This document shows, piece after piece, positions 7,767 to 58,734 of a DNA stretch of 64,000 nucleotides; position 1 is the stretch's first letter, and each line of letters begins with the position of its first letter. Source of the DNA: Candidatus Nomurabacteria bacterium (lineage in GTDB: Bacteria > Patescibacteriota > Minisyncoccia > Phycocordibacterales > UBA9973); contig JACKGL010000004.1 of NCBI GenBank assembly GCA_020631955.1, forward strand, positions 25,811 to 89,810, written 5' to 3'. Position numbers and translations under genes: made by a program. The notes below the pieces were generated by a model. The model saw only the letters and a program-made list of their open reading frames with translations. It searched no databases and had not been told where the DNA came from.

Positions 7767-9054
7767 AGTCAAAATAATTTCTTAGTCTCTTTATTTTTTC
7801 ATTATGTCTTAGTTTCTCATGAACCTTAGCCTCTATCTGACGAATTCTCTCACGAGTCACCCCGAACTCTTGTCCTACCTCTTCTAGAGTATGTTGCACA
7901 CCATTGGTCAGACCATATCTCATTTCCAATATTTTCTTTTCTTTCGGGTTGAGTTCATCTAATACTTCCCTTATCTGATCTTGAAGTATTCTACGAGCCA
8001 CTTCTTGGTCTGGGGAAAGTATTTTATCATCTGGAATGAATTCACCTCTTGTGGATTTTTCTTCTGAATCGTTACCGATAGGTTTTTCTAGAGAAACTGT
8101 CTCTTGGTTGATCTGTTCTATGGTGTATATCTTATCTACTTCTACACCCATCTCTGTAGCTATTTCTTCAGGTAGTGGGTCGCGGCCCAAGTCTTGTTGT
8201 AAACGACGAAGTACTTGTTTGTACTTAGATATTGTCTCTACCATGTGCACAGGTATACGAATAGTACGTGACTGATCAGCAAGAGATCTGGTTATAGACT
8301 GTCTTATCCACCATGTAGCATATGTAGAGAATTTGAATCCTTTTGTCCAATCAAACTTTTCTACTGCTTTGAAAAGACCAATATTTCCTTCTTGTATAAG
8401 ATCTAGAAGTGTAAGGTCGCTCGATCTTCCAACATACTTTTTAGCTATAGATACCACAAGACGAAGGTTGGCTCTAGCCAAAAGATTTTTAGCTTCTTCA
8501 TCCCCCGCCGCTACTCTTTTTGATAGATCTCTTTCTTCTTGTGCAGAAAGTAGGGGATACTTACCTATTTCTTTTAGATACATTTGTATAGAGTCATAAG
8601 AAGGTAGATCACGGAGAAGATTTTTCTGATCTTGTTTTATTTCTGTTTCTAGATTTAAAAGATTACCACCTTCAAGTACATCTATATGTAGAAGACCAAA
8701 ATCATCATAAAGTTCTTCAAGAAAAACAATATCGCTTTCTACGTCTGGAAAAGCTTTTAGGATTTCGTCATATGTGACATACCCTCTTTTCTTCCCTTTT
8801 TCTATAAGCTCACTTTTTATCTTATCTTTGTCAGCTTTTGATATCTTGGCACGTCTGGTTGTATTTTTTACAGCTTTTTTAGTAGATTTCTTTGCTGTTT
8901 TTTTAACAACTTTTTTATTTGTTGTTTTTTTTGCCGATTTTTTAGCTGTTTTTTTCACAGCCTTTTTTGCTACTTTTTTAGCAGTTTTCTTAGCCACTTT
9001 CTTTGTGGTTTTTTTAGCCTTCGATATTGTTTTTTTGGTTTTTTTTGCTGGCAT
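7765..9054 (-). CDS. rpoD: RNA polymerase sigma-70 factor RpoD with lysine/alanine-rich N-terminal repeats
   Basis: Regions 2-4 clearly present ([16 protein letters not shown]..., [25 protein letters not shown]..., [20 protein letters not shown]). N-terminus is [10 protein letters not shown] repeats instead of acidic region 1.1. Confidence 0.9.
8790..9050 (-). repeat. coding tandem repeat (AKK/KKT units) within rpoD 5' end
   Basis: Imperfect tandem tttttt/gctgtt repeats at nucleotide level encoding KKxAKK units. Confidence 0.6.
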
Positions 9055-17957: not shown

Positions 17958-18046
17958 GGCCAAAACATCCGAATGAACTCAGTATTGTTCGCAGTGTAAT
18001 GGAGCGGAATTGCGGACAACGTCGGGATTAAGAGAAGTTTTTGCGA
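17958..18046. repeat. dispersed intergenic repeat, copy A (core ggagcggaattgcggacaacgtcgggattaagagaagttt)
   Basis: Nearly identical to 18737..18823; shorter match at 19606..19660 and partial match at 4053..4070. Confidence 0.55.
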
Positions 18047-18736: not shown

Positions 18737-18823
18737 AGCCCAAATATTTGGATGAGCTCAGCATTGTTCGCAATGTAGTGGAGCGGAATTGCGGACAATG
18801 TCGGGATTAAGAGAAGTTTTGCC
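18737..18823. repeat. dispersed intergenic repeat, copy B
   Basis: ~90% identical to copy A over ~85 bp. Confidence 0.55.
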
Positions 18824-18938
18824 GACTTCCTTATTTCTATTATAGAGGAGGCGAAATTTAGGTGAAAGAAAAAGTGCTACCTTTGAAAAATATTAACGCA
18901 CTTTTTCTTGAACCTCATACACGCTGTTAGGCGATGTA

Positions 18939-19494: not shown

Positions 19495-19612
19495 CCTAAT
19501 GTGCACGCTTATACAAAGTCTATCACAAAACGAAGTTTTTGGGAGAGATTTTGTATAAGCGTTGTTGTGTGTAGCTCCGCGGAGCACTACAACGCTGTGA
19601 GCGTGCACATTG
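19495..19612. repeat. long nested palindrome (gtgcacgc...gcgtgcac; cttatacaaa...tttgtataag; gctccgcggagc)
   Basis: Three nested inverted-repeat pairs read directly; the spurious ORFs on both strands here are mirror-like. Confidence 0.5.
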
Positions 19613-19660
19613 TGTGCAATGGAGCGGAGCGGAATTGCGGACAACGTTTCGGGCTAATCC
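19606..19660. repeat. dispersed intergenic repeat, copy C (core with agcgg duplication)
   Basis: caatggagcggagcggaattgcggacaacgtttcggg matches the core of copies A/B. Confidence 0.5.
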
Positions 19661-52467: not shown

Positions 52468-52585
52468 TCATAGTTTTTTTCTTTCTGCGGGCCACTCGGG
52501 TTAAGTAGCCCACAGCTCCAAGCTCCATAAGGATTTCTGAGGAATATTTTGAAAACTAGATTCAGGTATGTGGGTCGCAATATAT
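52468..52585 (+). repeat. cassette-boundary repeat R-a
   Basis: Shares ttttttcttNNtgcgggcca...gggtt.agta...taagg...tgtgggtc with R-b. Confidence 0.55.
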
Positions 52586-52588
52586 TGT

Positions 52589-53626
52589 TTAGAATTCAGC
52601 AAAGATTCGTTTTTCCGAAGAGATAATTCTGACTTTTCTCCCATAAGGCAAGCAGATTTGTGGGTTGGTGTGGCCAAAATCCATATTTTGAATTACTGGA
52701 ACAGTTTTATTATACTCTCTTATTACTTTTAAGATCTTACCACGTTGCTCTTTTCTGTATGAAGATTTTTGACCTGCTGAATTTTGTTCTTTAAAACTCC
52801 ATGCTTGTGGTCTTCCAACAAGAACCCCTTTTACACGTTCAAGAATACCTCGTTCACCAAGGGCTCGATACACACGCTTAACATAATCACTAGATGGTAT
52901 TTCCTCTGATGTTTCAGTGATAAGGATAATATTTTCAAATTGATCAAGAGCTGGAATCTTCGCCCCATGTCGTAACAGCTCATCAATGGATTCCAAACAT
53001 CCGCCCCAAGTAATTCCATCAGTATTAATATTGCCGTCCCAATACCAACCGTCATTTTCTTCATATATTCGTTCTTCGTTTAATTTTGAAATATCATCCC
53101 AGCCTAATCCTATATCATTATATACTGGACTTGGCTCCAGCTCGAATTCACCATTATCAAAAAGAGCATGCTTTATATATTTTATAGTGTATTCGTCCAT
53201 TCTCTTTTGCATGCCAAATTGAGTAAACAAAGATGCTCCATAGAACGAAGGAATTCCATTGAGCCAAAGAAAATTTGCAAAATGAGTATTATCACTAAAT
53301 CCGAAAAAAGGTTTTGGATTATCGATAAAAGGCTCCGACGGTAAATTCTTTATATATGTTATTTGATCATCTCCACCAAGCGAAGCAATGACGGCTTTTA
53401 TATCATTTTGAATAAAGCTGTCTATTAAATCTTTCGAACGTTCCTCTTTAGAAGCACCAAGTTTTGAGGTAACTGAAAATTCTACAGGTTCTAGCTCAAA
53501 GACTTCTCGAACCCTTTTAAGGGCAAGTTCATATACATGCGGCCACTTTCCTGGGGCAGCAAAAGATGGTGACACAATACCAACTTTGTCACCAGGGTTA
53601 AGTTTTGATAATTTACTGAAATTCAT
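52589..53626 (-). CDS. LD-carboxypeptidase (S66 family, LdcA/MccF-like)
   Basis: GFSDNTHF (Ser nucleophile), DFGHTNP. Confidence 0.7.
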   Translation of the reverse strand: MNFSKLSKLNPGDKVGIVSPSFAAPGKWPHVYELALKRVREVFELEPVEFSVTSKLGASKEERSKDLIDSFIQNDIKAVIASLGGDDQITYIKNLPSEPFIDNPKPFFGFSDNTHFANFLWLNGIPSFYGASLFTQFGMQKRMDEYTIKYIKHALFDNGEFELEPSPVYNDIGLGWDDISKLNEERIYEENDGWYWDGNINTDGITWGGCLESIDELLRHGAKIPALDQFENIILITETSEEIPSSDYVKRVYRALGERGILERVKGVLVGRPQAWSFKEQNSAGQKSSYRKEQRGKILKVIREYNKTVPVIQNMDFGHTNPQICLPYGRKVRIISSEKRIFAEF

Positions 53627-53660
53627 ATATTTTTATTTTAACTTAATCTAAACAAAAAAG

Positions 53661-53785
53661 GTATCTGGGTCAGACCGATACTTTTTTCTTAGTGCGGGCC
53701 ATGTGGGTTCAGTACCAGAGTAGTGAGACACCGTAAGGGTTATTTAGGAAAAATTCAGACACTAATTTGAGGCTTGTGGGTCATA
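53661..53785 (+). repeat. cassette-boundary repeat R-b
   Basis: Homologous to R-a along its length, and to R-c in its 5' part (ctgggtcagaccgatactt...tgcgg). Confidence 0.55.
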
Positions 53786-53850
53786 TAGAGAAATATTGAC
53801 ATAATATATAAATTATGATAAAATGATAGAGAACCAAAAATTAAGAAACA

Positions 53851-54363
53851 ATGAAAGTACTTTTATTAGAGGATAATCCTCAAAATATCGAAAGCTTAAA
53901 AACGGCAATTTTAACTGCCTGCCCTAATGCTGACATTACTGTATTAACAGAAGTAGGAGCTTCTTTTTACAAAGGTTCCGAATACAACGAGGCTGTGCAA
54001 TTAGCCTCGTATGATGCTGTAATAACAGATGTAAACATGCCTGGCTATACTGACCGTGATGGCATGATAATGAGCCCAATTGGACCTATTATTGCCTTAA
54101 AGGCATTACAGCAAGGAGTTAAAAGAATTGCCGTTTTGACGGATGCCAACCACCATGAAGCCAGCCCGATTTCAAAATCGGCTGATCTTTTCCGGGGTTT
54201 TCACTCGGAACTTGGATTTAATGGTGACTGTGTTATTGGTGACATAAAATTATATTATGAAAACACTAATAAGCTTAATACCAAGTATCAAACAGACACC
54301 TTGAGATGGCTCTTTAGTGAAACTAAAGACAGGGTTGTAGATTGGTTGAAAAAAAATCCGTAA
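53851..54363 (+). CDS. stand-alone response-regulator receiver (REC) domain protein with unknown C-terminal extension
   Basis: MKVLLLEDN..., DAVITDVNMPG (phospho-acceptor Asp context). Confidence 0.55.
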   Translation: MKVLLLEDNPQNIESLKTAILTACPNADITVLTEVGASFYKGSEYNEAVQLASYDAVITDVNMPGYTDRDGMIMSPIGPIIALKALQQGVKRIAVLTDANHHEASPISKSADLFRGFHSELGFNGDCVIGDIKLYYENTNKLNTKYQTDTLRWLFSETKDRVVDWLKKNP

Positions 54364-54375
54364 GGATAATAACAA

Positions 54376-54408
54376 AAGGTCTCTCAAATTTTCGAGAGGC
54401 CTTTTTTA
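54376..54408 (+). terminator. rho-independent terminator
   Basis: ggtctctcaaattttcgagaggcc then tttttt. Confidence 0.5.
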
Positions 54409-54412
54409 TTTT

Positions 54413-54454
54413 GAGACATGTGGGTCACTCCGATACTTAGTTCTCTTTGCGGTG
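54413..54454 (+). repeat. truncated boundary repeat R-c (interrupted by IR1-L after ...ttgcgg)
   Basis: catgtgggtcactccgatacttagttctctttgcgg aligns with the 5' part of R-b. Confidence 0.5.
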
Positions 54455-54640
54455 TTTATTGGACAAAGTTCGAAACTATTTCGAGCAAAATCCAAACGAT
54501 TAATGCGGACTCGGCAGGGCGAAACAATTTGTCTGAGGGAAAGGATTCGCCCTGCCTCGGCTGTTTTCCCGCCCGCAGGAGGGGTCTGGGGAGGAATGCG
54601 GGCGGGTTTCGGACTGGGGGTTTTCGGAAATTCGGCAGCT
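54450..54640 (+). repeat. IR1-L (~191 bp, GC-rich, contains two strong internal hairpins)
   Basis: Reverse complement matches 56824..57014 over every stretch I compared. Confidence 0.8.
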
Positions 54641-54649
54641 AATAAAAAT

Positions 54650-55129
54650 CTAACACAAAAAATACAATCCAAGTAGTGCGTAGATTATTCCGAACACCCA
54701 CGGAATAATCAACTCGATGTGTGAAAATGGATAGTATTTTTTGTTATCCTCGCCCTTACCCAAAACTTCCCATTCGTATTTATACAAAGCGAGTGGTAAA
54801 TATTCCTCGATTTTGTGAACAACAGCAAACTTCCCAGTGTTTAATTGTTTGTATGACCTAATGAGATACCAAAAAACTACACAAACAATTATTCCGACAA
54901 GGGCGAGGATTGATTTTACAAATGATAGATTTTCAAAAATCTTAATTTGAAAAGATAATCCTATGAGCGAGATAAGAGCAGTATTTATCGTAATAAAATA
55001 ATTATTTGCGTGTTGTCGTCTGTCGCTCGTTTTTTCTATGCTCTCAACATAAAGTTTATACTGCTCAAATAAGTGTTCTTTGTAGTCGTTTCCGTAATCT
55101 TTTTCATTTTTTGAAAATAAATCGCTCAT
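54650..55129 (-). CDS. small 3-TM membrane protein (candidate pore/effector component)
   Basis: 159 aa; soluble N-region then TM helices at ~53-68, 85-101, 139-158; last gene of operon, abuts IR1-L. Confidence 0.5.
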   Translation of the reverse strand: MSDLFSKNEKDYGNDYKEHLFEQYKLYVESIEKTSDRRQHANNYFITINTALISLIGLSFQIKIFENLSFVKSILALVGIIVCVVFWYLIRSYKQLNTGKFAVVHKIEEYLPLALYKYEWEVLGKGEDNKKYYPFSHIELIIPWVFGIIYALLGLYFLC

Positions 55130-55133
55130 AGGA

Positions 55134-55535
55134 TTATCTGTTGCCTTTCAAAAGCAAGCCAACATTTTCCCAAGTCCAGTTATACATTTTGTCAGTGGTT
55201 TTTACTCCGACTGGGAATGTGCAATTCTTATTACTTCTGCCTTTGATAAGAAAATATGGCTTGCCTAATTCTTGGGCAATTTTTATTTCTTCCGTAACTC
55301 CTTTTGCTGTGTGTGTCCATTCACCGCAAATCACGACGACCTGTTGAGCATTTATTATTTTCTGCTTAACTTTTGCTTTCCAATCACCCAACAACGCTTG
55401 TTTGACTGACAAGTCGCTTATTTCAAAAGGAGTGTCGTCGTGTTTTGCTTGTCCGACAAAAAGATGTTTCAAATCCTCGTCGTGATCAAAATCAAAACTG
55501 ACGAATACTTTTGTTTTTGTGCCGTAGTAAGTCAT
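55134..55535 (-). CDS. TIR-like (DUF1863/ThsB-like) domain protein
   Basis: KVFVSFDFDHDEDLKHLF (TIR beta-A/DUF1863 N-motif) and QQVVVICGEWTHTAKGVTEEIKIAQELGKPYFLI, which parallels ThsB VTCVLIGSQTFNRRWVRYEIMKSIEKGNKIIGI including the conserved Glu. Confidence 0.6.
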   Translation of the reverse strand: MTYYGTKTKVFVSFDFDHDEDLKHLFVGQAKHDDTPFEISDLSVKQALLGDWKAKVKQKIINAQQVVVICGEWTHTAKGVTEEIKIAQELGKPYFLIKGRSNKNCTFPVGVKTTDKMYNWTWENVGLLLKGNR

Positions 55536-55542
55536 AAATTAT

Positions 55543-56505
55543 TTACTCAAAGAATTTTCCAAGCCACCCACCAACAATACTTTGTGCAAATGCAATAACT
55601 TGCACAATCACAAAAATCAAAAATGGGTTTATATCTACAAACCAACTAACAACCCACGAAAGGAGAAGTGTCAGAAGTAAAGAGATAACAAATCCTTTTG
55701 TTTTTGAAATTTTTGGTTCAACTTCTTTTTTTGTTGGTTCATCTTTTTTATCGAGTAGTTTTTGGATATATTCAACTATTTCATCACTACTTTTAAATTC
55801 TATTTCAGAAATGCCAACATAACTTGAAGATTTTTCATCAAAAAGCGATTTATTAAAATCCTCAACATATTTCAGTTTCTTGCCATAAGCAGAATCATCA
55901 CGCTTCTCTTTCGGCAAATCCCAATATGCTTCACTCTCTTTCTTTTCTGATTCATTATCTGGATACCAAATACTCATTCCATAGTCGCCTGTATGGATTT
56001 CCAAGCCATGAGAGTCTTTTTTTACAAGTTCTTTTACTTTAGCAACGCCATCTTTAATTCTCTCTATGGATTGACGCAAAAACCTTCGATATTCATCTTT
56101 TGAGATTATTTCTGGATGTTTCGATAAAATGTATAAATTAACTTCATAATTTCCAAAAATTGGTACTTTAGACCAAACAACTTCTTTTTTTAGACTTTCA
56201 ATTCTGTCAGGCATGACAAAATCTTTTTTCTTGATTTCGGACTCCAAAACAACGCCGTCTTTTATTGAATGGTCTGTTCCACCTACAAAATCATGATAAA
56301 GCTCTATTGTCCGCATCTTTAAATCAATAGGATCATCTGAAATTTTATACTCAATTGTGGAATAGTTATGATGATAATCATCATTAATGCTCACATCTAT
56401 CTTAATTTTTTTCTCACTAGGGAAAAACTCAAAAGTGTTCGTTGTATGTTCATCGTTTATGACGATTGAATTTTCATCATCAAAAATTTCTACTTCTTTT
56501 TTCAT
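55543..56505 (-). CDS. hypothetical protein, ~270-aa soluble N-domain plus C-terminal 2-TM domain
   Basis: C-terminal hydrophobic helices GFVISLLLTLLLSWVVSWFV and FLIFVIVQVIAFAQSIVGGWL. Confidence 0.5.
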   Translation of the reverse strand: MKKEVEIFDDENSIVINDEHTTNTFEFFPSEKKIKIDVSINDDYHHNYSTIEYKISDDPIDLKMRTIELYHDFVGGTDHSIKDGVVLESEIKKKDFVMPDRIESLKKEVVWSKVPIFGNYEVNLYILSKHPEIISKDEYRRFLRQSIERIKDGVAKVKELVKKDSHGLEIHTGDYGMSIWYPDNESEKKESEAYWDLPKEKRDDSAYGKKLKYVEDFNKSLFDEKSSSYVGISEIEFKSSDEIVEYIQKLLDKKDEPTKKEVEPKISKTKGFVISLLLTLLLSWVVSWFVDINPFLIFVIVQVIAFAQSIVGGWLGKFFE

Positions 56506-56517
56506 AAGTTTAAAAAA

Positions 56518-56724
56518 TTATTTTAATAAATCCTCCATAGGAACGCCTAACGACTTGGCGATTTTTTGGATTGTTTGAACGCTTGGTTTCGTAACAACAC
56601 CACCCTCAATTTTTGTCAGGGTAGAGTATTTTATGTCCGCTTTTTTCGCCAAGTCATCTTGGGTCAATCCTTGTTTTGTTCGTATTCGTTTTATGTTTTC
56701 TGATATAGTTGCCATAGTATCCAA
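56518..56724 (-). CDS. XRE-family helix-turn-helix transcriptional regulator
   Basis: IKRIRTKQGLTQDDLAKKADIKYSTLTKIEGG is a Cro/C1-type HTH. Confidence 0.7.
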   Translation of the reverse strand: MDTMATISENIKRIRTKQGLTQDDLAKKADIKYSTLTKIEGGVVTKPSVQTIQKIAKSLGVPMEDLLK

Positions 56725-56823
56725 ATTTTGATAGTATTATCTTATGAGAAGATTCTTTCTTTGCTCACAAAACAATGATAGCAAAAATTATGGATTTATT
56801 CAATATGTATTTTCTGATTTTGT

Positions 56824-57014
56824 AGCTGCCGAATTTCCGAAAACCCCCAGTCCGAAACCCGCCCGCATTCCTCCCCAGACCCCTCCTGCGGGCGGGAAAA
56901 CAGCCGAGGCAGGGCGAATCCTTTCCCTCAGACAAATTGTTTCGCCCTGCCGAGTCCGCATTAATCGTTTGGATTTTGCTCGAAATAGTTTCGAACTTTG
57001 TCCAATAAACACCG
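56824..57014 (-). repeat. IR1-R (inverted copy of IR1-L)
   Basis: See IR1-L. Confidence 0.8.
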
Positions 57015-57131
57015 CCAAAATTCGGAATTCAAATTTCCGCCAAAAATATGGTCGGCGCGAAGCGCCGTCTGTTCTGCATTCCCCCCACAAAATCCTGATT
57101 CTGCAAGGATTCGCCACGCTCCGCGTGGCTC
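57012..57131 (+). repeat. IR2-L (~120 bp), immediately abutting IR1-R
   Basis: Reverse complement matches 58533..58652; contains palindrome cggaattcaaatttccg. Confidence 0.75.
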
Positions 57132-57155
57132 CTCGTTTGCCAATACAAAAACAAT

Positions 57156-58500
57156 ATGAATAATCACACCAGAAAGTTTTTTATCTATACTCGTAAATCT
57201 ACCGATACAGAAGATCGGCAAGTTAGAAGCATTTCGGACCAATTGGCCGAATTGAAATCTCTTGCACTCAAAGAGAATATTGAGGTTGTAGATATTTTTG
57301 TAGAAAAACAAACCGCCAAGATTCCGGGTCGGCCAGTATTTGACGAAATGCTTCTTCGTATCGAGCAAAATGAGGCAAATGGAATTTTAGCGTGGCATCC
57401 TGACAGATTAGCGAGAAATAGTGTTGATGGTGGAAAAATTATCTATTTGCTCGATACGGGGAAAATTGCCGAACTTAAGTTTCCAACTTTCTGGTGTGAT
57501 ACGACACCGCAAGGAAAATTCATGCTCTCAATCGCTTTTTCGCAATCCAAGTATTATGTGGACAATCTAAGCGAGAATATCAAGCGTGGTAAGCGGAACA
57601 AAGTGAAAGACGGAATATGGCCTCAAATGTCTCCACTCGGATATATGAACAAGGGTGGAAAAATTGTTGTTGATGAAAATATCGCACCTTTAATCAAGAA
57701 AACATTTGAGGCATATTCGTCTGGGTCTTTCACTTTGCGCCAACTTCGTGACAAATTTAACGAACTTGGATTGAAGCGAAAAAGCGGAAAGGAACTTGCG
57801 GTGTCGAATTATCAAAAACTTTTGAAAAATCCGATATACACTGGTTTGATGCTGTATAACGGCGAAATCCACGAGGGCAAGCATGAACCGATTATCACAA
57901 AGAAACTTTTTGATTCCGTTCAGGAAGTGATGATGAGGAAATCTAAACCTCACTCGAAAGGTCTAAAACCATTTTGTACAGAGGATTTTTCCGTTGTGGA
58001 GAATGTGGCTGTTTCATTACCACCGAAACACAAAAAGGACATAACTATTTGCGATGTACCAAACGGAAAAATCCTTGCTCACAAAAAATACACTCGTGAG
58101 GAAATCATCACTTCCGAAATTCAAAAAGAAATCAAAAAGTTTCTTTGCCAGACGATTGGGCTAAATGGATGTTGGCGGAAAACGAAAAAGATAAATTGGT
58201 GGAAACCCAATCGTCTACGCTTTTTAGGATAAGACAAAAGCCGATATTTCTCTCTTGATTCCAAGATTGAGAAGCTGATGAATGCTTACCTAGAAAACGC
58301 ACTTTCACTAGAGGAGTATCGAGATGCTAAAAGTGCGTTGGTCAATCAAAAACAGCTTCTCAAAGAGAAATTATCGGCTTTTGAGCAAAAAGGGAATAAT
58401 CGGTTCGAACTTACGGAAAAGTTTTTGAAATACAATATAGAATTGGCAAACGAGGGAATAAATGAAGAGAAACTTCATTTATTCAAAAAAGTCGGTTCGA
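57156..58500 (+). pseudogene. large serine recombinase (resolvase/integrase family), disrupted
   Basis: N-terminal catalytic domain (YTRKSTDTEDRQVRSISDQ..., GILAWHPDRLARN) and recombinase domain present; canonical zinc-ribbon FRCGECGCFITTETQKGHNYLRC is readable only in the -1 frame around 57977..58090; in-frame TAA at 58230 before the coiled-coil C-terminal part. Confidence 0.6.
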
Positions 58501-58532
58501 ACTTTATTATTGAAGCTCGAACCGTACTTTTT

Positions 58533-58652
58533 GAGCCACGCGGAGCGTGGCGAATCCTTGCAGAATCAGGATTTTGTGGGGGGAATGCAGAACAGACGGC
58601 GCTTCGCGCCGACCATATTTTTGGCGGAAATTTGAATTCCGAATTTTGGCGG
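58533..58652 (-). repeat. IR2-R (inverted copy of IR2-L), last bases overlap tRNA-Ser 3' end/CCA
   Basis: See IR2-L. Confidence 0.75.
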
Positions 58653-58734
58653 AGACGGAGGGATTCGAACCCTCGGTGGTGTGACCCACACACGCTTTCC
58701 AAGCGTGCGCACTAGACCGCTATGCGACGTCTCC
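58650..58734 (-). tRNA. tRNA-Ser (anticodon GGA), type II with long variable arm; CCA encoded at 58647..58649
   Basis: Reverse complement folds as GGAGACG acceptor, 3-bp D-stem, anticodon stem CACGC/GCGTG with loop TTGGAAA, 16-nt variable arm, T-arm GAGGG-TTCGAAT-CCCTC. Confidence 0.8.

Follow-up and report, generated by a model that had tools for sequence, protein, structure and literature searches.

Two abutting inverted-repeat pairs in a probable serine-recombinase integrative element at tRNA-Ser genes of Patescibacteria

The window analysed here is a 64-kb stretch (64,000 nucleotides) of the Candidatus Nomurabacteria contig JACKGL010000004.1. Its subject is the 4.2-kb span 54446-58652, which carries a cassette of cargo genes and the gene of a large serine recombinase (LSR) and ends at a tRNA-Ser(GGA) gene (Table 1). 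An inverted-repeat search of the whole window found two long pairs, IR1 (201 nt, 99% identical) and IR2 (120 nt, 100% identical), whose left and right arms are called here A and A' (IR1) and B and B' (IR2). The right arm of IR1 and the left arm of IR2 overlap by 7 nt (57012-57018, CCGCCAA), abutting at CCGC/GCGG, and the order is A-cargo-A'B-recombinase-B', followed by tRNA-Ser. These are the sole long inverted repeats in the window; the next longest is just 40 nt at 70% identity, which excludes a chance origin. B' overlaps the final 6 nt of the tRNA gene (CCGCCA), including its CCA end. On balance, we favour the view that the span is an integrative element moved by its LSR, one of a large family confined to Patescibacteria whose members insert at the very 3' end of tRNA-Ser genes, and that its geometry results from an attachment (att) site lying within the recombinase gene, which is split on insertion, together with an inverted copy of the split block.

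An earlier note on this DNA had described two contiguous inverted-repeat pairs, the second perfect, about 120 bp long and ending at the 3' end of tRNA-Ser, and this description holds. The right arm of IR1, which it placed at 56824..57014, is slightly longer than was thought (56818-57018, with its partner at 54446-54646). The term "palindromic module" for the block A'B is a misnomer, because this block of about 314 bp is not itself a palindrome; instead, one complete copy (A'B) is present in the element together with a second, inverted one that is split, with A lying at the left end and B' at the right. Nor is the recombinase gene enclosed by IR2, since its open reading frame (ORF) passes through B'. 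Three features lay beyond that first reading: the ORF crosses the att core, the recombinase of the window is a pseudogene, and the DNA bordering A on the left forms the end of a different integrative element, here called Z.

Table 1. Features of the locus and of selected related loci (window positions unless a locus is named)
Feature	Position	Strand	Basis or remark
Element Z, LSR-less integrative element left of A	52487..54445		core TGCGG 52487-52491
Z left arm GCCACTCGGGTTAAGTAGCCC	52492-52511		one occurrence in the window, 0 expected by chance
Z cargo, LD-carboxypeptidase	52589-53626	-	Pfam
Z cargo, receiver-domain-like protein	53851-54363	+	Pfam
Z right arm GGGTCACTCCGATACTTAGTTCTC	54422-54445		24-mer
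A (IR1 left arm, attL-side half of the split block)	54446..54646	+	core GCGG 54449-54452; G+C-rich hairpins after the stop codon
Detached last 16 recombinase codons CLLDKVRNYFEQNPND	54453-54500, stop 54501-54503	+	inside A
8xMP membrane protein	54650-55129	-	2.1e-43
ThsB-like TIR protein	55134-55535	-	Pfam 4.3e-07, PADLOC ThsB 1.2e-05
320-aa protein, unknown family	55543-56505	-	Pfam search
XRE-type helix-turn-helix (HTH) protein	56518-56724	-	Pfam
Candidate cargo promoter	56803-56775	-	promoter scan, plausible
A' (IR1 right arm, part of the intact inverted block copy)	56818..57018	-	repeat search
B (IR2 left arm)	57012..57131	+	with A' forms the intact inverted attP-like junction; core CCGC 57012-57015
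Two conserved hairpins (palindromes) in B	57053-57067, 57114-57128		mirrored in B' at 58597-58611, 58536-58550
LSR pseudogene	57156..58715	+	frame reopens after the last indel and runs through B' into the tRNA gene without a stop to 58715
B' (IR2 right arm)	58533..58652	+	exactly 40 codons of the recombinase C-terminal extension, EPRGAW...SEFWR
attR junction	58649-58652		core GCGG; CCA end of the tRNA supplied by the element
tRNA-Ser(GGA), putative integration target (attB right half)	58647/58650-58734	-	ARAGORN and Rfam
Distant element	L055 11632-15062		154-nt and 132-nt repeats; tRNA-Ala(GGC); core TGG; adjoins a canonical tRNA-Ser element
tRNA/B-LSR-B'/tRNA locus	L051 9439-11582
tRNA/B-LSR-B'/tRNA locus	L056 9780-11584
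tRNA/B-LSR-B'/tRNA locus	L085 9778-11596

The recombinase has the domains of an LSR. Pfam finds Resolvase (PF00239, 8.6e-20) and Recombinase (PF07508, 6.4e-15) in the window ORF, and intact homologues add Zn_ribbon_recom (PF13408), a region that is frameshifted in the window copy. The protein is about 500 aa long with its catalytic domain at the N-terminus (residues 9-154), and its matches in the PDB include SPbeta SprA and the A118 integrase. The best alignments to solved LSR structures stop at query residue 426 of 552, well before the tail, and the last ~57 residues appear to be an extension of the canonical LSR fold.

With the frame-corrected window recombinase as the protein query, thousands of relatives were found, and the loci that were studied are numbered from L001 onwards. 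The best 120 LSR homologues are all 81-96% identical to the query and come from Patescibacteria of many classes. Among species-representative genomes there are 319 relatives, and the genomic context was read at 80 of these loci and at three other homologues. The layout that the earlier note had drawn for the window extends to the whole family: it is present in 50 of the 57 copies readable on both sides. A census of 77 copies counts 50 with A'...tRNA around the LSR, three with tRNA...tRNA, one with tRNA...A and one with A...A. The A arms measure 86-434 nt, the cargo 1.2-6.4 kb and the B arms about 120 nt. Across the family, a tRNA-Ser gene on the opposite strand comes after the LSR gene, which points towards it in about 90% of copies, and the targets include all five tRNA-Ser anticodon classes called by ARAGORN (GGA, TGA, CGA, GCT and ACT). 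The layout is also found in a chromosome record of 742 kb (L066) and in a 913-kb contig (L003). A link of the repeats to mobility, which the earlier note had required, is supported: elements that have them carry different cargo, occupy genes of five tRNA-Ser isoacceptors in many host lineages, and form tandem arrays. A tRNA 3'-end-like sequence ..GGTTCGAATCC.. was seen on the plus strand about 45-70 nt to the left of five elements (L003 ~3700, L004 ~4260, L054 ~8390, L066 ~3960 and L073 ~3460), with no ARAGORN gene there; it may belong to a neighbouring intron-containing or degenerate tRNA.

The junctions of about 60 elements share a single sequence, the core GCGG, which is the only one common to the left (flank/A), central (A'/B, as CCGC) and right (B'/tRNA) junctions. 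Natural variants at the core read TGCGG, GGCGG and TTGCGG. A short identical core without long direct repeats is the pattern of attP x attB integration. As read from the sequence, the motif TTCGAA lies at +17 from the core in the A arm and at +12 in the tRNA arm, that is, 5 bp farther in the former. Such a 5-bp spacing offset is expected between the P-type and B-type half-sites of LSR att sites.

The 3' end of the recombinase gene carries the main evidence for how this arrangement came about. The LSR ORF has no stop codon of its own, and all homologues read open through B'. Called lengths (490-647 aa) therefore vary with the flanking DNA, which calls for caution in annotation. The commonest tail after B', R(R/G/E)xDSNPR..., results from a backward reading of the tRNA T-arm. 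A native tail, ...SEFWR continued by CLLDKVRNYFEQNPND and a stop, is found in 13 of 120 clusters and matches exactly B' plus the beginning of A. These conserved last 16-20 codons and the stop occupy the first 48-60 nt of A, and hairpins follow; in the inverted central copy the frame is likewise kept open in 50 diverse sequences, with the stop 16-21 codons past the core. Within the A-encoded tail, the entropy is 0.73 at third codon positions, compared with 0.43 at first and 0.35 at second positions, and a conserved proline codon is written CCA, CCG, CCT or CCC. The roughly twofold variability of third positions and the synonymous proline codons place this tail under coding constraint. B is equally regular: up to the core it measures exactly 120 nt (40 codons) in 60 of 61 variants, and the gap from its end to the recombinase start codon is 21-24 nt in nearly all copies (24 nt in the window). 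TACAAT, noticed by eye, stands just 5' of the LSR start codon in most homologues.

From this we infer that attP has the form B'-GCGG-A and lies inside the recombinase gene, and that attB has the form flank-GCGG-tRNA-Ser, the CCA and trailer of the tRNA being supplied by the element. Recombination of the two would split the 3' block of the LSR gene. A would move to the far left end of the element as attL, while B' would remain with the gene, next to the tRNA, and become attR; the ORF would then continue into the tRNA, so that insertion swaps the LSR tail for tRNA-derived residues. A and B' would be half blocks because, on integration, the last 16-20 codons are cut off and come to lie at the opposite end of the element. 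Two contiguous inverted-repeat pairs would be seen because the 3' block is split and every element also carries a full inverted copy, A'B, between the cargo and the start of the LSR gene.

Excision would very likely release a circle carrying two identical inverted blocks. The earlier note had pictured the integrated form as a circle opened inside one copy of the block; this gains independent support in that B' followed by A forms a continuous conserved frame with the native C-terminus and stop, while the circular molecule itself is a prediction. We offer more tentatively, as a possibility that falls somewhat short of an even chance, that the inverted block is both a second attP and a spare copy of the gene's 3' end. 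Insertion through the in-gene block would then truncate the LSR and give the common, stable form, and insertion through the spare block would leave the LSR intact and give a rare form such as that at L076 and L094. The LSR body of the common form could regain an intact tail by homologous inversion between B and B'. The blocks would swap roles in each cycle, and both would hence be kept identical by selection and gene conversion; the retained internal attP could also react with other tRNA-Ser genes to give tRNA/B-LSR-B'/tRNA products. This reading accounts for a repeat that begins where the canonical fold ends and for a B arm that stops 21-24 nt before the start codon in nearly all copies. It also explains why the repeat spans the whole tail and terminator and not just an att site of ~50 bp, and why the geometry co-occurs with an att site in the gene. 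More doubtful is the further idea of a self-contained mobility toggle, in which insertion would truncate and lock the element and rare inversion or spare-site insertion would re-arm excision, with tRNA-Ser inversions and orientation-blind reassortment of defence cassettes as by-products. We know of no conjugative machinery in Patescibacteria.

Variant loci suggest, from their arrangement, that recombination occurs at the junctions of the element. Three of them (L051, L056 and L085) read tRNA-Ser(+)/B-LSR-B'/tRNA-Ser(-), with two different tRNA-Ser genes facing each other and no cargo module. They look like the product expected if the central attP (A'/B) had recombined with a second, inverted tRNA-Ser attB. 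The B'/A junction, for which the earlier note had proposed to search assemblies, lies directly downstream of the recombinase in L037, L076, L094 and L115; the two B copies are unlike in each, which excludes assembler confusion at these junctions. In L076 and L094 the order is tRNA(+)/Bx-LSR-By'/Ay, in which Bx and By are of unlike sequence type, so an assembler passing through a repeat cannot have produced the arrangement; the LSR retains its native tail and is directed away from the tRNA. Either insertion via the other block or an inversion of the LSR segment would have this outcome.

Elements are also found in arrays. In the tandem arrays L004 and L054, tRNA fragments lie between the members, and L073, L037 and L092 have direct B'/A array junctions, through which the upstream LSR gains a native tail. 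Such direct junctions would arise when a newcomer uses the occupied site B'/tRNA, in which the tRNA half is intact. At L004 4160-4328, L054 4702-4881 and L026 1757-2670, the upstream B' is followed by a tRNA 3'-end fragment of ~15-57 nt, unrelated DNA and then the next element. Separately, L114 (890-2660) shows flank/A, with only the first ~60 nt of A, joined directly to B-LSR-B'/A, without A' or cargo between them, and this variant may be a deletion derivative.

The comparison of L014 with L037 also bears on another explanation. In these two elements A-cargo-A' is 98.5% identical and inverted, with only 85% identity in the LSR segment and B types that are unrelated; the similarity ends exactly at the core, which points to reassortment at the core or to an orientation-blind exchange of cassettes. 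The same facts would suit two independently mobile modules, namely B-LSR-B' as an insertion-sequence-like unit with 120-bp terminal inverted repeats and A-cargo-A' as a separate passenger, each circularising through its own palindromic B'/B or A'/A junction and inserting separately. The core bounds each module on both sides, and LSR modules without adjacent cargo exist (L051, L056 and L085). However, neither B'/B nor A'/A occurs in about 90 loci, and symmetric ends could not enforce the prevailing orientation of the LSR towards the tRNA. The conserved ORF runs from B' into A, which makes B'/A the selected junction, and the cargo-less modules lie between two tRNA-Ser genes, as expected from recombination of the internal attP with a second attB. 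We therefore regard two separate modules as unlikely.

It is also necessary to ask whether the repeats take part in recombination at all. Within an element the A arms have a median identity of 100% (n = 31, minimum 95%), as do the B arms (n = 55, of which 33 are perfect pairs). Between elements, the median identity of the A arms is 83%, over an alignment of just ~56 nt that corresponds to the coding tail, and of 465 pairs a single one is at least 99% identical over at least 150 nt; distinct B variants are a median of 77.5% identical to one another. Private substitutions are common to both copies inside one element, so the arm copies have been homogenised; in L014, the sharing is limited to the outer half of B, and the inner halves differ. 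Homogenisation needs no LSR in cis, because the arms of the window are perfect despite its dead LSR, and RecA-type gene conversion would be the simplest cause. B, in addition, holds two conserved hairpins. One has an invariant stem, CCACGC/GCGTGG, in 58 variants. The other is paired in 57-58 of the 58 variants with compensatory changes at three pairs (GC to CG and the reverse, and A-U), and is kept even where the encoded residues change (ALRA to RLRR). These hairpins could be an operator, a terminator or a DNA structure. Rfam, at gathering and at permissive thresholds, returned the tRNA only and no known RNA family in A or B. Single-sequence folds of A (z = -1.9) and B' (z = -2.3) are just marginally beyond shuffled sequences, and we claim no structured RNA apart from the two hairpins.

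These data can be read as an ancestral inverted duplication of the gene's 3' end and terminator, kept by gene conversion and acting at most as an insulator or terminator, an operator or an RNA structure. The survival of arm identity beside a dead LSR, compensatory changes that override amino-acid conservation, terminator-like calls on the compensated hairpin in both orientations, and the near-fixed orientation of both segments all speak for it. What makes it improbable is the distribution of the geometry. Subfamilies at 57% and 38% LSR identity have it, the latter at a different tRNA: the second element of L055, at tRNA-Ala, has an LSR that is 38% identical and the same four arms. Its repeat begins at ..LFGEP, the same point of the protein as ..LFEP here, and its homologous tail reads CWW, then, past the core, DILNVARTHFERNC and a stop. 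In contrast, the Z family, when found elsewhere, has its own LSR (33% identical to that of the window) and the target TTGGCGG/tRNA-Ser, with no inverted repeats and an LSR gene that stops ~70 nt short of its att arm. Because Z also uses tRNA-Ser and lacks both features, the four-arm geometry goes with the att-inside-gene design and not with target or host. A duplication without a role in recombination would also leave aside the constant starting point of B in distant subfamilies, its distance from the start codon, which is nearly constant, and the variant loci that recombine at the central junction.

Inverted repeats flanking a recombinase recall hixL and hixR around hin, and the rare opposite orientation of the LSR in L076 and L094 could be taken for the product of a switch of the Hin/Gin type, in which the recombinase inverts its own segment B-B' and toggles neighbouring genes while the element is not mobile as a unit. 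Hin, Gin and Cin are recombinases of ~190 aa with a C-terminal HTH and 26-bp inverted crossover sites, and they do not move between loci. The enzyme here is an LSR of ~500 aa with Recombinase and zinc-ribbon domains. Near-identical LSRs accompany unrelated and varying cargo at five tRNA-Ser isoacceptors, in many lineages and in arrays, which needs transposition between genomes, and the orientation is one-sided in about 90% of copies; a switch is therefore very improbable. An assembly artefact, of which the earlier note had warned, with collapsed, expanded or chimeric repeats, can be practically dismissed: inverted repeats longer than the assembler word length do break or mis-orient contigs, and many related contigs end inside A'B, but more than 50 assemblies, made by different projects with different assemblers (NODE_, k141_, k127_ and scaffold names) and including the chromosome-level record, have the same layout with element-specific arms, and the arms are under coding and structural constraints.

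Several points weigh against the favoured reading of an LSR-moved element with its att site in the gene and an inverted copy of that site. No circular molecule, empty site or read-level isomer was observed in the assemblies examined. To our knowledge, canonical LSRs need no second attP and do not recombine attP with attR or attL, and our readings of the arrays and of reassortment assume relaxed rules. The orientation of both segments is near-fixed (cargo 27 of 31, LSR about 90%), which means that flipping, if any, is rare or counter-selected. The LSR ORF is intact in 73 of 75 copies (of the others, one is a short ORF cut by a contig end and the window copy is the sole pseudogene), and most are fused to the tRNA; the tail may thus be dispensable and a spare 3' end unneeded. 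Perfect arm identity beside a dead LSR could come from simple RecA gene conversion acting on a duplication that has no function. The left half of attB shows no conservation, an unusual feature for an LSR, and a promoter scan found no convincing LSR promoter. Two loci with the order LSR, B'A, HTH, cargo (L095 and L113) were considered as proof of flipping and were not counted, since their repeats are perfect and an assembler could have walked through them.

By its enzyme and the logic of its junctions, the family appears to belong with the LSR integrative elements and prophages (phiC31, Bxb1, A118, SPbeta SprA, the Ccr recombinases of SCCmec and TnpX of Tn4451). It shares with them the same domains, site-specific integration, hybrid junctions with a short core, a recombinase beside one junction and cargo in between. 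It differs in that the att core lies inside the recombinase ORF and that a full inverted copy of the ~300-bp att block creates repeat pairs of 120 nt and 86-434 nt. In addition, the left half of attB varies, occupied sites are apparently reused (the direct B'/A arrays), and no separate directionality factor is evident in the element. IS607 recombinases are of ~200 aa and have a MerR-like HTH before the catalytic domain, and their elements lack terminal repeats and often carry TnpB. The element studied here differs from them in its N-terminal catalytic domain, its length of ~500 aa with Recombinase and zinc-ribbon domains, the lack of a TnpB gene and its tRNA-Ser-specific insertion. The earlier note had not recognised the geometry from IS607-type or LSR elements, and a full-text literature search likewise found no description of the family or of its geometry.

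Closer in logic are the archaeal integrases of the SSV1/pTN3 type, whose gene contains attP and is split when they integrate into a tRNA gene, leaving an N-terminal part without a stop codon (PMC5495485). An integrase of this type has been linked to chromosomal inversions with breakpoints in oppositely oriented tRNA genes (PMC5495485). Those inversions parallel the tRNA/B-LSR-B'/tRNA loci described above. The likeness is one of logic only: the gene is partitioned here too, and the enzyme is a serine recombinase, whereas the SSV1/pTN3 enzymes are tyrosine recombinases of episomal archaeal plasmids and viruses, with a long overlap of att and tRNA and no inverted spare gene end described; here only the last 16-20 codons are removed. 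The yeast 2-micron plasmid has the same topology as the predicted circle, with two inverted identical blocks dividing a recombinase segment from a second segment. Its FLP is a tyrosine recombinase that acts on the repeats and flips the segments for copy-number amplification. The element here has no replication genes, its segments are near-fixed in orientation and its repeats carry the integration site; frequent flipping for amplification in the manner of the 2-micron plasmid was rejected for the first two of these reasons. In mycobacteriophages of clusters G, N and P, which show integration-dependent immunity, attP lies in a gene whose C-terminus depends on the integrated or excised state. The split gene there is the repressor, the integrase is a tyrosine recombinase, and there is no inverted duplicate. 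None of the systems compared unites a serine integrase with an att core in the ORF of that integrase and a complete inverted duplicate of the gene end that bears att. A single-stranded circle that pairs A with A' and B with B' into a duplex attP, as in CTXphi, was also considered and rejected, because double-strand cleavage by a serine recombinase would hairpin-cap the chromosome ends, a product that is not seen. The IMG/VR viral contigs yielded no relative of the LSR, and a phage origin was dropped on this ground.

A large part of bacterial diversity belongs to the Patescibacteria (Candidate Phyla Radiation, CPR), whose genomes are tiny and whose ways of exchanging genes are poorly understood. 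This LSR family is apparently a major vehicle of gene exchange in the CPR. Its recombinases, 80-96% identical, are spread over many classes, in every case at tRNA-Ser, and they carry restriction-modification (R-M), TIR or abortive-infection-like and copper-resistance cassettes. Its architecture, with the att core in the ORF and an inverted att-bearing gene end upstream, falls outside the textbook picture of serine integrases. If the inverted copy were a working second attP or spare end, directionality and stability would be coupled to the integration state without a directionality factor, and the tRNA-gene inversions would be explained. On the practical side, the LSR of this family is compact and highly conserved and has a defined natural target in the 3' end of tRNA-Ser, and the many natural att variants are a resource for integrase engineering.

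The copy in the window is itself decayed. Compared with three close relatives, its LSR has five 1-nt indels (~57971, 58083, 58133, 58226 and 58256) within 300 bp, with a sum of -3, through which the zinc-ribbon region is lost and a stop arises at 58230; either true decay or a local sequence error could account for them. With its LSR a pseudogene, the element would be immobile in cis, and it appears to persist as a small defence-type cassette of a TIR protein and a membrane protein. All genes of the cargo cassette (54647..56817) lie on the minus strand. A match to ThsB_TIR without ThsA (SIR2/Macro-SLOG) in the cargo does not make a Thoeris system, and the cargo is at most a candidate for a TIR-plus-membrane-effector pair.

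Elsewhere, the cargo includes EcoRI-type and type I R-M (L004), copper resistance (L003), DUF4440 (L001) and Abi-like (L113) genes. An XRE-type HTH gene of 64-70 aa usually adjoins A' (27 of 31 elements in the census of cargo orientation) and is transcribed away from the LSR; HTH proteins of ~95% identity are found with unrelated cargo. One paper figures a type I R-M island, possibly the one at L067, for the metagenome-assembled genome nzgw456, which holds L067; its text refers to no recombinase, integrase, tRNA or repeats.

On the left side of the locus, host DNA extends to about 52486, where there is a terminator and TGCGG, and element Z follows, so the locus appears to be an array of host, Z, the studied element and tRNA-Ser. 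The right-arm 24-mer of Z occurs in 17 metagenome contigs, with TTGGCGG next to it in each, followed by tRNA-Ser in ~12 and by a sequence like the left arm of Z in five. This 24-mer had at first been taken for host flank in the search for empty-site alleles that the earlier note proposed, and no empty site was recovered. The Z/A junction is also present in L034; in the window it reads TTTGCGG where TTGGCGG is expected, a difference of one base. The studied element was probably inserted into the attR of a resident Z element.

Two further repeats were noticed in the window. Three direct copies of an 88-nt/40-nt sequence, 86-90% identical and spaced ~780-850 bp apart (17959-18046, 18738-18825 and 19608-19647), probably mark a tandemly repeated gene or gene segment. 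A T-rich stretch at 8864-9025 with a 12-nt periodicity and eight overlapping copies is probably a low-complexity coding repeat on the opposite strand.

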